Assembly (NCBI GenBank): GCA_035545635.1
Contig: DASZXY010000006.1
Coordinates: 153,882 to 217,881, forward strand
From: Mycobacteriales bacterium
Lineage (GTDB): Bacteria > Actinomycetota > Actinomycetes > JAFAQI01
Direction: 5' to 3'
DNA: 64,000 nt
Shown here: positions 5,592 through 51,917 of the stretch, one piece after another
Layout: each line of letters starts with the position of its first letter
Numbering within the stretch: position 1 is the stretch's first letter
Notes under the pieces: model-generated
The model's input: the letters and a program-made list of their open reading frames with translations, nothing else
Databases searched by the model: none
Told to the model about the DNA's origin: nothing
Translations under genes and position numbers: made by a program

Positions 5592-6521
5592 CTCCTTCAG
5601 CAGCCGGATCATGTCGCTGCTCGCTTCGGCGGCTCCGGCGCTCAGCTGCGTGAACCCGAAGAAGCCATGGATCATCCCGTCGTAGCGGCGTACGACGACC
5701 TCGACACCGGCGTCGGCCAGCGCCTTGCCGTAGGCGAGACCCTCGTCGCGCAGCGGATCGAACTCCGCGACGCCGATGACGGCGGGTGGCAGACCGGTCA
5801 GATCGGAGACCGCGATTGGTGACAGCCCCGGCGCTGCCGGGTCGATCCCGTCGGGGAGGTACTGCTCGCGGAACCACAGCATGTCTTCCGCGGTGAGGAA
5901 GTAGCCCTCAGCGTTCTCCACGCGTGAGGGGAAGTCGCCGTCTTCCGTGAAGTCCACGCCGGGGTAGATGAGGAACTGCGCGGCGAGTGCCGGTCCCTCG
6001 CCACGGCAGGCGAGCGCGACGTTTGCGGAGAGGTTGCCGCCGGCGCTGTCGCCACCGACCAGCAGCTTGCTTGCGTCGCCGCCGAGCGAGTCGATGTTGG
6101 CGGCGGCCCAGCGGGTGGCAGCGAGGCAGTCCTCTAAGCCGGCCGGGAAGGGATGCTCCGGCGCAAGCCGGTAGTCGACGCTCACGACCACCATCTCGCC
6201 GTCGCGGCAGATCAGGCGCGCCTGGTCGTCGTGCGTCTCGATGTCGCCGATGACGAACCCGCCGCCGTGGAAGAACACCATCGTCGGGACGGGACCGTCG
6301 ACATCCGGGCGGTACAAGCGGGCGGCACGCTCTCCCGCGCCGCCCGTGACGGTGATGTCCTCGACCGAGCGGACCTGCGCCAGTGTCGCGGCGTTGCGCA
6401 CGCCGACGGTTCCGGCGCGGAAGCCGGCGCGCGCCTGTTCTGCGGTGCTCGACGCGATCGTGGGTGCGCCCGCGTCAGCGAGAAACTTCAGGATGGCGGC
6501 GATCTGCGGGTCTAGCGGCAT
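5577..6521 (-). CDS. alpha/beta hydrolase, hormone-sensitive-lipase-type esterase
   Basis: VFFHGGGFVIGD oxyanion motif and GDSAGGNL nucleophile elbow. Start taken at MPLDPQ (ATG 6521); ATG 6539 is also possible. Confidence 0.8.
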   Translation of the reverse strand: MPLDPQIAAILKFLADAGAPTIASSTAEQARAGFRAGTVGVRNAATLAQVRSVEDITVTGGAGERAARLYRPDVDGPVPTMVFFHGGGFVIGDIETHDDQARLICRDGEMVVVSVDYRLAPEHPFPAGLEDCLAATRWAAANIDSLGGDASKLLVGGDSAGGNLSANVALACRGEGPALAAQFLIYPGVDFTEDGDFPSRVENAEGYFLTAEDMLWFREQYLPDGIDPAAPGLSPIAVSDLTGLPPAVIGVAEFDPLRDEGLAYGKALADAGVEVVVRRYDGMIHGFFGFTQLSAGAAEASSDMIRLLKELLAS

Positions 6522-6618
6522 CGCTAGATCATGGCCCATGCAATGGGCCGTCGCATGGGTGGTTCATGCATTTCGGGGCCGCTTTGGCCATGCGATGTCA
6601 CATTGCTTGGCTGAATCG

Positions 6619-47057: not shown

Positions 47058-48701
47058 TTGGCATCTACCTACGCCGGCATCGGCGTGAGCGCCGGCGTGG
47101 CCGTCGGCCCCGTCGCCCGCGTCCATGGTCCGGTGTTGCCGCCGCGCGACGGGGCGCCGGTCGATGCACCAGCTGAGACCGCGCGTGCGATCGAGGCGTT
47201 CGAAGCGGTCGGCGGTGAGCTCGAGGCGCTGGCGTCGCGGGCTGGTGCTTCCGGCTCGACACTGGTCCGGCAGGCACGGATCGCCCGCGACCCGGCGCTT
47301 ACCGCGCTCGCGGGCCAGCTGGTCAGCACCGGCCGGGCCGCACCGCGAGCGGCGTGGGAGGCGTTCGCGGCGTATCGGGACATGCGTGCCGCCGACCCGA
47401 TGCGCGCAGTCCCCGACCGCGCCGAGCTCGACGACATCCGCGACCGGGTCGTCGCGCGGCTGCTCGGCGAGCCCACCCCGGGTATTCCCGATCCGGGCAC
47501 TCCGTTCGTGCTCGTCGCGCGCGACCTCTCGCCGGCCGTCACCGCCGGTCTCGACCCGGAGCGGGTGCTCGGAATCATCACCGAGCGTGGCGGTCCGACC
47601 AGTCACACGGCGGTGCTCGCAAAGTCGCTCGGCATCCCTGCCGTCGTCGCGTGCCCTGGCGTCGCGTCGCTTCGCAGCGGCCAGCGCGTCATGGTCGACG
47701 GCGCCGTCGGCGAGGTCACGGCCGATCCGGACTCAGACACGGTGGGCGCGGCCGTCAAGCTGCCGAAGCCCGACGCGGTCGTGACCGGTCCGGGCCGCAC
47801 GCGCGACGGCCGGCCGGTGCGGCTGTTCGCCGCGGTCGGCGGTGTGGGGGACGCGGATGACGCCCTGGCGGCGGGGGCCGAAGGCGTCGGGGTGTTCCGT
47901 ACCGAGTTCGCGTTCCTCGACCGGGACGAGCCCCCGTCGGTTGCCGAGCAGGCCGCGGCGTACCGCGAGGTCTTCGACGCGTTCGGCAGCCGCGAGGTGA
48001 CGGTTCGGACGCTCGACATCGGTGCCGACAAACCCGCTTCCTACGTGCGGCTCGGTGACCAGCCGAACCCGGCACTGGGCGTGCGTGGGATTCGGGTCGC
48101 GCGGCGCCACGTCGAGCTGCTCACCGACCAGCTGACCGCGATCGCGATGGCGTCGCGCGGGTCCGAGACTCCGGTGCGGGTGATGGCGCCGATGGTTGCG
48201 ACGACGGCGGAGGCGGCATGGTTCGCGGCGCAGTGCCGCGAGCACGGCATCGGTACCGCGGGCGTCATGGTCGAGGTTCCGGCTGCGGCGCTTCGCGCGG
48301 CCGACATGTTGCGCGTCGTCGACTTCGTCTCGGTCGGAAGCAACGACCTGGCGCAGTACACGTTTGCGACCGACCGCGCCGACGGTGAGCTTGCCGACCT
48401 GCTCGACCCGTGGCAGCCGGCGTTCCTCGACCTCGTGGCGACGGTGTTGCGGGCTGGTGCGGTCGCGGGCCGGCCGGTCACGGTTTGCGGCGAAGCGCCC
48501 AGCGACCCGATGCTCGCGCTGGTCCTTGTCGGGCTCGGCGCCGGCGCGCTGTCGATGACCTCACGAGTGCTGCCCGACGTACGGGCGACGCTGGCGCGGC
48601 ACAGCTACGACGACTGCGTGCGCTACGCGACCGCCGCGGTCTCCGCCGACGGCCCCTCAGAAGCAAGAGCCCGAGTAAGAGACGCCCTCGACCGCAGCTA
48701 G
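47058..48701 (+). CDS. ptsI: phosphoenolpyruvate-protein phosphotransferase (PTS enzyme I)-like PEP-utilising enzyme
   Basis: GGPTSHTAVLAKSLGIPAVV (phospho-His), SVGSNDLAQYTFATDR, VCGEAPSDP. Start TTG 47058 inferred from (M)ASTYAGIGVSAGVAVG. Confidence 0.75.
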   Translation: MASTYAGIGVSAGVAVGPVARVHGPVLPPRDGAPVDAPAETARAIEAFEAVGGELEALASRAGASGSTLVRQARIARDPALTALAGQLVSTGRAAPRAAWEAFAAYRDMRAADPMRAVPDRAELDDIRDRVVARLLGEPTPGIPDPGTPFVLVARDLSPAVTAGLDPERVLGIITERGGPTSHTAVLAKSLGIPAVVACPGVASLRSGQRVMVDGAVGEVTADPDSDTVGAAVKLPKPDAVVTGPGRTRDGRPVRLFAAVGGVGDADDALAAGAEGVGVFRTEFAFLDRDEPPSVAEQAAAYREVFDAFGSREVTVRTLDIGADKPASYVRLGDQPNPALGVRGIRVARRHVELLTDQLTAIAMASRGSETPVRVMAPMVATTAEAAWFAAQCREHGIGTAGVMVEVPAAALRAADMLRVVDFVSVGSNDLAQYTFATDRADGELADLLDPWQPAFLDLVATVLRAGAVAGRPVTVCGEAPSDPMLALVLVGLGAGALSMTSRVLPDVRATLARHSYDDCVRYATAAVSADGPSEARARVRDALDRS

Positions 48702-48703
48702 CG

Positions 48704-48820
48704 GATCGCATGTCACATAGGTGCTGTGACGCGAAGCTCCTATGTCACATGCATGTCGTGAAATGCGACCCCCATGTCACACAGGTGTCGCAAATCGCAG
48801 CACCTATGTGACATGCGATC
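48704..48820. repeat. 117-bp array L: four ATGTSACAY dyads at 32-bp phase, perfect 23-bp terminal inverted repeats
   Basis: Dyads at 48710, 48742, 48774 and 48806. GATCGCATGTCACATAGGTGCTG (48704-48726) is the exact reverse complement of 48798-48820. Confidence 0.9.
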
Positions 48821-48823
48821 TCA

Positions 48824-49798
48824 TCAAGCGGCGGCGCTCTCGATCAGGCGAACACCTGGCGGCAGGCCTTGGCCTGCGAGGCGCCGGTAGCAGGCCACCA
48901 CCTCGCCGAGCACGGCTCTTCCTTCGCGCCGGATTCGACGCGGCGAGTTGTGAAGGGCCGTCAAGCCGGCCGCTGTAATCGCGTCGTGCCGCTCCTGCAT
49001 GCTCTCGAAGAGATCCTCGCCCTCGTGGAACTCCCGGCCGTTCACCTCGTGAATGAGTGGCGCCCCTGGGAAGAGCGCGTCGGGAATGACCCTCCTTCCG
49101 TCGGGAAGCACGAGTACCTGGTTGAGCAGCGGCTCAGGGAGCTCGGGTGAGGAGCGGCAAAGCCGCACGAAATCAACTTCAGGTGCTGACCGGGCACCGC
49201 TCGCGATCTCCATCACGGCTCGTCGTGCGACGCCCGCGCCTCGACCGGTGCTGTGCTCGGCCTCCTCGGTGAGCGCCGCCACGCCCGCGATTCGGCGGTT
49301 CACGGCATCGGCGAGCATTGCGTGGGCCGTCTGAGGCACTCCAATCCGCGCCGCGGCTTCTACGAGGGCCCTCTCTGGTGGGCAGTAGGAGAGACCTTCG
49401 ATCAGTCGCGGCTCAGGGATGCGATGGGTGCGCCGAACGACGACGAATCCGCGACTCGCGCGGTGCTGCTCAGCCGGGATCAGAACGTATAGGTCTGACT
49501 CGGGCGGTAGGTACCGTACGCCGTATCGCGCGAGGGCCGTCACGTCAGCCAGCTGCGCGGACTCGCCGGCGTAGAGAAGCGCGGCTCGACTGCGTTGGCG
49601 ATGGGTCAGCTCCCCACGGAAAGTCGCGTAGACCCCGGGAAGCGTCATCGACCAGCTCTTGGCGAGCCGTTGGCGCAGCTCGCTGACCGATAGCTCAGCC
49701 AGCGCTTGAGTGCGCGTAACGATTCCGTCTTGTTGTGCAGCGAGTGCGGTGAGCGACATGTCGAGAACATGCCTGTGCAGCCGACCTGGAAGAGACAT
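48824..49798 (-). CDS. AbiEi-type wHTH N-terminal domain fused to DUF559/Vsr-like nuclease-fold C-terminal domain; orphan (no AbiEii)
   Basis: LTALAAQQDGIVTRTQALAELSVSELRQRL (AbiEi_4-like) and RVIPDALFPGAPLIHEVNGREFH (D...E-x-N/D-G..H of DUF559). Start ambiguous: ATG 49798, ATG 49759 or GTG 49852. Confidence 0.75.
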   Translation of the reverse strand: MSLPGRLHRHVLDMSLTALAAQQDGIVTRTQALAELSVSELRQRLAKSWSMTLPGVYATFRGELTHRQRSRAALLYAGESAQLADVTALARYGVRYLPPESDLYVLIPAEQHRASRGFVVVRRTHRIPEPRLIEGLSYCPPERALVEAAARIGVPQTAHAMLADAVNRRIAGVAALTEEAEHSTGRGAGVARRAVMEIASGARSAPEVDFVRLCRSSPELPEPLLNQVLVLPDGRRVIPDALFPGAPLIHEVNGREFHEGEDLFESMQERHDAITAAGLTALHNSPRRIRREGRAVLGEVVACYRRLAGQGLPPGVRLIESAAA

Positions 49799-49839
49799 TG
49801 GGCGGGTGCCGGTGGATAACCGTCCGCACCCGCTGCGCT

Positions 49840-49955
49840 GTTCGTATGTCACATGGGTGTCGTGAATCGCGGCCCCTATGTGACATAGGTGTCGTGAACC
49901 GCGACCCCAATGTCACATGCGTGTGCGGTGGCACAGCACCGATGTGACATTCGAT

Positions 49956-49956
<1 letters not shown>
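49840..49956. repeat. 117-bp array R: second copy of the four-dyad 32-bp-phased array, same orientation as L
   Basis: Dyads at 49846, 49878, 49910 and 49942. About 74 percent identical to L by hand alignment (87/117). Termini only 18/23 self-complementary. Confidence 0.9.

Positions 49957-51917
<1,961 letters not shown>

Follow-up and report, generated by a model that had tools for sequence, protein, structure and literature searches.

A REPtron-like arrangement of a gene for a predicted winged-helix/Vsr-like protein and a dispersed palindromic repeat in Mycobacteriales

The ptsI-MFS locus and its orthologues

The window analyzed here is the whole stretch of 64,000 nucleotides taken from the metagenome-assembled genome (MAG) of a bacterium of the Mycobacteriales (contig DASZXY010000006.1, positions 153,882 to 217,881). 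In this window, a gene on the minus strand was found between ptsI and a gene of the major facilitator superfamily (MFS), and it is enclosed by two blocks of palindromic repeats, here called elements A and B (Table 1). This arrangement resembles a REPtron, i.e., a gene for a REP-associated tyrosine transposase (RAYT) flanked by repetitive extragenic palindromic (REP) sequences, although the protein encoded here is of another kind.

Each block contains four copies of an odd palindrome, which start at positions 48710, 48742, 48774, and 48806 in element A and at 49846, 49878, 49910, and 49942 in element B. The spacing is exactly 32 bp throughout. The exact motif ATGTSACAT occurs at eight sites of the window (0.12 expected) and a pattern of paired dyads gives 12 matches (0.00 expected). 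A direct alignment of the two blocks yielded 87 identical positions out of 117, namely 34 of 36 in the dyads, 44 of 69 in the spacers and 9 of 12 in the lead and tail. The eight dyads, their spacing and the block identity, all of which had been part of an earlier reading of the window (the original prediction), were thereby recovered. When folded as single-stranded DNA, the blocks reach -41 and -34 kcal/mol (z-scores of -8.6 and -5.0).

The blocks had been described as lying in the same orientation, which is incorrect when their asymmetric ends are considered. Each block is a 117-nt imperfect palindrome, and A and B can therefore be read both as direct and as inverted repeats. A distinct spacer (AGGTGYTGTGRC..., the 'S' spacer) marks one end of the element, whereas the remaining spacers share a 19-bp palindromic consensus family-wide (GTGTCGTGAATCACGACAC). 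Judged by this asymmetric end, the two blocks are inverted with their marked ends pointing outward, and this is plainer in the orthologues. The pentamer TAGCG is present on both sides of the cassette (48699-48703 and 49957-49961), inside the stop regions of the neighboring genes, and is unmatched in the orthologous loci L002/L025. A search of positions 48000-50600 against Rfam gave no match, and scans of the cassette for promoters and terminators found no site.

Table 1. Positions of the repeat elements, the enclosed gene and the leader box in the window.
Feature	Position	Strand	Description
Repeat element A	48704..48820	no strand	Four ATGTSACAY dyads, 32-bp period, ends GATCGC...GCGATC; between the ptsI stop (48699-48701) and the stop of the family gene; 'S' spacer at the left, outer, ptsI end
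Repeat element B	49840..49956	no strand	Four perfect ATGTSACAT dyads; 'S' spacer at the right, outer, MFS end; last base falls within the MFS stop codon (49956-49958)
Enclosed gene	48824..49759	minus	311 aa; public gene call VHD81_02635; ATG at 49759, stop 48824-48826
DnaA-box-like 9-mer TTATCCACC	49811..49819	minus	Within the leader, 60 nt ahead of the ATG; 8 of 9 positions match TTATCCACA

Orthologues of the gene were located by tblastn with 120 homologues. Each of the genomes rich in elements has one orthologue, solely at the ptsI-MFS locus and always beside two flanking elements. This slot is occupied in U6130 (L002/L025), U5953 (L096), U6222 (L102), Mycobacterium sp. bin.59 (L017), and a JGI contig (L003); in a MAG of the Frankiaceae, the contig ends within the element on the MFS side. 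Between the orthologous genomes, identity at the 4-fold degenerate sites of the gene amounts to 34-40%, which corresponds to saturation. The mobile or homing cassette that had been suggested originally is therefore unlikely as a recent insertion, because the slot is shared by at least five genomes with saturated 4-fold sites. The gene is inherited vertically, with a single copy per genome for its repeat family.

Over the same distances, 81-94% of the dyad positions in the flanking elements are kept, compared to 51-75% of the spacer positions, and the 32-bp phase of the dyads is preserved. The proposal that the dyads and their phase are conserved more strongly than the spacers, which had been made from the two blocks of the window, is thus borne out in the orthologues. 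An orthologue with 68% identity (L108, 3860-5000) carries the cassette in reversed orientation in the ptsI-MFS slot, with two dyads per side that are 31 bp apart. This could be the result of an inversion between the inverted flanking repeats.

Dispersal and constraint of the repeat

A pattern of three dyads was searched across 185,579 species genomes and gave at least 101 stretches, this and the following genome counts being lower bounds. Eight matches outside the Actinobacteria were set aside as unrelated simple tandem repeats. The other matches listed fall into a few soil MAGs of the Mycobacteriales and Frankiaceae, four of which hold at least 28, at least 23, at least 18, and at least 21 elements, respectively. 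Among the matches listed (96 elements), 52 elements have four dyads and 42 have three, while five or six are rare. Genes in these loci were called heuristically from the length of open reading frames (ORF) and the GC content at third codon positions, with starts taken from the tblastn matches. On this basis, the listed elements are found between convergent genes in 36 cases, between tandem genes in 33, between divergent genes in one, and inside an ORF in one, so that 69 of the 71 classifiable elements follow gene ends.

The two blocks at the ptsI-MFS locus are thus copies of an extragenic palindromic repeat similar to REP sequences and bacterial interspersed mosaic elements (BIMEs), which occurs chromosome-wide in a clade of the Mycobacteriales, mostly after gene ends. 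Since the same element is found genome-wide, the arrays are not private operators of the enclosed gene. The original prediction had seen in the locus a self-contained module, which does not hold, as most elements are far from any family gene and, according to tblastn with the 120 homologues, such a gene adjoins only a handful of them. It had also named a generic, genome-wide REP-like repeat that has no link to the protein as the outcome that would speak against it; the repeat is indeed genome-wide, but its association with the protein survives, as described in the next section.

Solitary copies showed no regular target-site duplication. In an empty-site comparison of L084 with positions 34.1-34.7 kb of the window, synteny ends right where the element sits. 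As flanking and solitary elements are of one kind, and as near-palindromic elements could recombine in either orientation, the solitary copies might be scars of cassettes that were deleted by recombination between their flanks, similar to solo long terminal repeats. This would need about 100 insertions per genome, all of them later deleted, with one copy fixed in a conserved slot. Moreover, inverted flanks favor inversion over deletion, and the tblastn search with the 120 homologues found no partial gene remnants beside solitary elements. Such an origin is considered very unlikely.

Many of the solitary elements have a counterpart at the syntenic site of one or two other genomes. Pairs of syntenic elements are 90% identical in the dyads and 71% in the spacers, and for random pairs of elements the values are 91 and 68%, respectively. 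Because syntenic pairs are no closer than random ones, their likeness reflects constraint to a consensus or homogenization and not recent common descent.

With regard to the physical form in which the repeat might be recognized, Watson-Crick pairing at variable positions did not exceed the expectation under independence, neither for pairs within spacers nor for pairs across the whole element, and the dyad centers showed no covariation. Among the matches listed, all 337 dyads have C or G at their center. The model of a single-strand hairpin was dropped for the repeat family of the window, as the two covariation tests gave no sign of it. These results favor recognition of the dyads as duplex DNA over that of a strand hairpin. 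At a phasing of 32 bp, it is plausible that the dyads lie on one face of the helix.

Some further observations were made on the sequences around the elements. In the loci L004-L104, TAG stop codons are commoner in genes whose end is no more than 45 bp away from an element (38 of 63) than in others (162 of 404; p = 0.004). The tetramer CTAG is present within 30 bp of an element end in 32 of 96 elements, and TCTA or TAGA is found within many hairpin loops of other subfamilies. In L020, L030, and L040, an outer inverted repeat (CCGTTGCGTTGGC ... GCGACGCAACGG) lies beyond the dyad array in a subset of elements, which suggests a longer composite element.

The protein family and its flanking repeats

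The full-length structure model of the 311-residue protein has a predicted local distance difference test (pLDDT) score of 92.3. Residues 1 to approximately 185 form an AbiEi-like winged-helix region. PADLOC models of AbiEi cover residues 3-173 with E-values of 3e-8 to 4e-13, and in a Foldseek search the N-terminal region matched AbiEi (6y8q, E 2.8e-4) and Rv2827c (1zel), while the Pfam family AbiEi_4 stays below its cut-off for this protein. Residues of approximately 190 to 300 form a Vsr-like domain of the PD-(D/E)xK type, of which a separate model (186-311) reached a pLDDT of 90.4. The eight best Foldseek matches of this domain are all Vsr-like and include AbaSI, PvuRts1I, I-Bth0305I, and NGO0050 (3hrl), the last of which we take to be a member of the DUF559 family. 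Their probabilities range from 0.93 to 0.98, with template modeling (TM) scores of 0.72-0.74 to small domains, I-Bth0305I among them.

In 26 aligned members, which are 44-80% identical to the protein of the window, the residues E194, D196, D227, H237, E238, N240, H245, Q255, R257, and H270 are invariant, and E194, D227, H237, E238, and H245 among them are putative catalytic residues. None of these members matches Pfam DUF559 even at E<=1. Sequence-profile searches of the protein against Pfam, NCBIfam and PDB gave nothing useful; neither Pfam nor NCBIfam showed a match to a Y1 (HUH) transposase of the IS200/IS605 type, and no DDE, Y or S transposase domain was found in the protein. Judged from the structure models, the protein can with confidence be described as an AbiEi-like winged helix-turn-helix (wHTH) region joined to a predicted Vsr-like nuclease domain. 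For the earlier reading as an AbiEi-type wHTH with a DUF559 signature, this means that the first part is supported by PADLOC and Foldseek and the second by its Vsr-like fold, but not by the Pfam model of DUF559.

No gene for an AbiEii (DUF1814) nucleotidyltransferase is adjacent in the window, where the neighbors are ptsI and the MFS gene, or in any of the related loci listed, which agrees with the lack of a toxin gene noticed originally. Genes of the rep or par type were not found adjacent either. The wider family is large (533 and 6,231 cluster representatives at E<1e-30 and E<1e-10, respectively), and its members are named 'hypothetical', 'AbiEi antitoxin' or 'DUF559' in their sources.

The relation between the family and the repeats was analyzed by comparing the upstream and downstream flanks of 39 family genes from metagenomes and genomes with those of 477 other genes from the same loci. 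The similarity of the two flanks exceeds the 95th percentile of the controls in 35 of the 39 family genes, compared to 4.4% of the controls, and a flank score of at least 20 was reached by 26 of 39 family genes and 0.8% of the controls. The flanking repeats differ from subfamily to subfamily. The protein family is thus specifically tied to its flanking repeats, as had been predicted for the single gene of the window, and for three subfamilies the repeats are also dispersed.

For a paralogue in the MAG of the window (P0078) and for its orthologue P0085, the flanks consist of another hairpin (CCAAGCAATGTGGCATTGC...GCAATGCCACATTGCTTGG), which is found alone in L018, L029, L082, and L090. In Rhodococcus ruber, a homologue with 30% identity (WP_029540190.1) is located between accD4 and the emb genes. 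Its flanks are ATGTSACAT hairpins of the form GGCCGAATGTCACAT-N21-ATGTGACATTCGGCC. Five such hairpins are present in 74 kb, three of them besides the flanks and at convergent gene ends. R. jostii carries a homologue, likewise with 30% identity, in the same slot as R. ruber with similar ATGTSACAT hairpin flanks, and the flanks of a Nocardia homologue have diverged.

An ordinary phosphoesterase-type gene of 534 aa (L007, 4891-6775) also lies between two elements and served as a negative control. At about 100 copies of a common intergenic repeat per genome, chance alone is expected to enclose one or two genes in this way. A single double-flanked gene therefore proves little, and the link to the protein family is real because of the family-wide pattern. 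It recurs with different repeats in the 35 of 39 family genes mentioned above, and it recurs in Rhodococcus at 30% protein identity, so that chance is an extremely improbable explanation for it.

Some side observations concern other repeats and loci. In L116 (1500-2800), the single hairpin beside the family gene is replaced by a longer array, i.e., direct tandem repeats of a unit of the ACGGCGTACCGGCGTGACGCCGCTACCGGT type, and the flanks in L117 (1000-2200) consist of AACGGCGTCACGCCGTT dyads about 34 bp apart. Positions 6515-6612 of the window hold its sole other ATGTCACAT (at 6595), with no family gene nearby; this region looks like a degenerate repeat of the second family (...GCGATGTCACATTGCTTGGC) and folds weakly (z-score of -2.2). 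The sole match to the family in the plasmid collection, NZ_CP145323.1 (L162-L164), is labeled as R. ruber 'plasmid pmega_4'. It carries serS, fadD32-pks13-accD4, and genes for an emb arabinosyltransferase and of the dprE type, and looks like a mislabeled piece of chromosome.

In most family genes, the stretch from the upstream repeat to the start codon contains TCCACAG. A box with at most one mismatch to TTGTCCACA/TTATCCACA, which we take to be the consensus of DnaA boxes, was found in 23 of 41 upstream regions of the family compared to 1.5% of random 200-nt windows, and is regarded as a candidate site. It is usually located about 85-90 nt before the start, and 57-60 nt in the clade of the window. 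The loci with such a box include the window, L113, L165, L166, and L002, and some have two boxes 20-29 nt apart. In U5953 (L096, 2755-2900), the leader of about 95 nt with the DnaA-like box is missing, and the frame opens at a GTG in the last dyad of the upstream element.

The fold of the C-terminal domain also bears on the question of which part of the system may be mobile. Its likeness to the homing endonuclease I-Bth0305I (TM score of 0.72-0.74) would fit a selfish gene, whose nuclease cuts the repeats so that repair copies the gene into repeat clusters in a homing-like manner; the gene would then land between repeats made by something else. Some insertion sequences target REPs, the flanks are inverted, and the reversed cassette of L108 in the same ptsI-MFS slot could be read in the same way. 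However, only one copy is present per repeat family and genome, each flank is a whole element and not half of a split one, and no copies were found in the phage collection. At least five genomes in which synonymous sites have reached saturation share the ptsI-MFS slot, and the slot of the Rhodococcus homologues is conserved from R. ruber to R. jostii. A repeat-targeting selfish gene is therefore rather improbable.

The AbiEi homology, on the other hand, raises the question whether the protein is purely a regulator. It could be an orphan AbiEi-type repressor or a nucleoid-type DNA binder with a nuclease fold that is inactive or unrelated to the repeats; the upstream element would be its operator, and the downstream and dispersed elements would be terminators, insulators, or decoy sites. 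AbiEi is established to autoregulate through paired inverted repeats, and the phased dyads, the lack of hairpin covariation and the position of the elements at gene ends are consistent with such a role. This explanation is nevertheless unlikely in view of the nuclease domain, where ten polar residues are invariant across members with 44-80% identity to the protein of the window. In addition, the upstream and downstream flanks are equally regular, and about 100 unrelated genes with an operator at the 3' end would be unexpected.

The MFS gene next to the cassette shows a peculiarity of its own. Its C-terminus (window positions 49956-50280, minus strand) is a long, repetitive tail rich in lysine, alanine, and proline with APRKS and AAKK units. 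The tail stems from tandem repeats of 15, 18, and 30 bp in the gene and resembles the basic tails of actinobacterial HU/histone-like proteins.

A possible function and comparison with known systems

The layout found here is REPtron-like, as a vertically inherited single-copy gene lies between inverted copies of a dispersed palindrome and paralogues are paired with different repeats. The explanation to which we incline, with moderate confidence, is that of a REPtron-like system which is built on a non-RAYT enzyme and in which the protein acts on its repeats. The winged-helix part would bind the ATGTSACAT dyads as double-stranded DNA, and by the 32-bp phasing, which corresponds to about three helical turns, several copies may occupy one face of the helix in a cooperative manner, much like AbiEi on paired repeats. 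For its own gene, the protein might act as an autoregulator via the upstream element, while genome-wide the putative nuclease domain would nick or cut at or near the repeats. Such cleavage may maintain, homogenize or occasionally copy the repeats, as RAYTs are thought to do for REPINs, and expression might be coupled to replication via the DnaA-box-like site of the leader.

Several points weigh against this explanation. The link between protein and repeat is statistical, and binding and cleavage are what we infer; the phosphoesterase gene of L007 illustrates that double flanking can arise by chance. The dispersal of repeats is based on three subfamilies, with a few kb of sequence each for 18 others. 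Solitary orthologous elements are no closer to each other than random pairs and many of them occupy conserved sites, so that recent movement is not directly evident. Strand transfer is beyond a PD-(D/E)xK nuclease alone, and any copying would therefore need host recombination. Furthermore, the putative nuclease motif reads E-x-N where relatives show E-x-D or E-x-K, and the data stem mostly from MAG contigs with heuristic gene calls.

Among the known systems, REPtrons and REPIN-RAYT systems share several features with the one described here: an extragenic palindrome that is dispersed through the genome (in the present case with at least 18-28 copies per MAG) and mostly found at gene ends, a vertically inherited gene of a single copy between inverted copies of its repeat, paralogues that pair with different repeat families, and a long persistence. 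Here, however, an AbiEi-like wHTH with a Vsr-like PD-(D/E)xK domain takes the place of the Y1/HUH transposase, nothing favors a single-stranded hairpin as substrate, the host belongs to the Actinomycetota, and a phased array of several dyads is found instead of a REP doublet. As the enzyme that defines the RAYT family is lacking, the system does not belong to it. As in BIMEs, the palindromic units are regularly spaced, build a larger palindrome and lie between genes, but the sequence is different, with a fixed 32-bp period, a 9-bp odd palindrome, and one asymmetric end. For the BIMEs of Escherichia coli, binding by IHF, gyrase, or Pol I was reported.

With the AbiE type IV toxin-antitoxin system, the protein shares the fold and sequence of the AbiEi wHTH and C-domain, and inverted repeats are located upstream of the gene. 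In contrast to AbiE, a fused nuclease domain is found in place of the AbiEii partner, and the repeats are present downstream and genome-wide as well. Because there is no toxin gene, the locus is not an AbiE toxin-antitoxin pair. The C-terminal domain resembles Vsr-like endonucleases (I-Bth0305I, the cleavage domains of AbaSI and PvuRts1I, and NGO0050) in its fold and in its conserved acidic and histidine residues, but it has an HE-x-NG motif and no match to Pfam DUF559 at E<=1. Its gene lies outside of introns, inteins, and restriction systems, and no phage homologue was found. Unlike iterons or partition centromeres, the sites are spread over many chromosomal loci and have no adjacent rep or par genes.

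Few non-coding features are as common in bacterial genomes as REP-type repeats. To our knowledge, the RAYT tyrosine transposase is the sole enzyme class that has so far been tied to them, and it has been studied mainly in Proteobacteria. In an incomplete search of the literature, no paper was found in which AbiEi or DUF559 proteins are connected with repeats of this kind. Tentatively, and with more doubt than for the single system, it may be proposed that the AbiEi-wHTH/Vsr proteins of the Mycobacteriales constitute a second REP-type class besides the RAYTs, in which each protein recognizes its own genome-wide repeat family and enzymatically maintains or spreads it, while expression is tied to replication by a DnaA-like box. 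If true, REP-type repeats would have a second protein partner that is unrelated to RAYT. This would explain a very large family of 'hypothetical proteins' and account for abundant intergenic palindromes in Actinomycetota. As the family is present in the culturable and genetically tractable genus Rhodococcus, experiments on binding, cleavage, and deletion are feasible.

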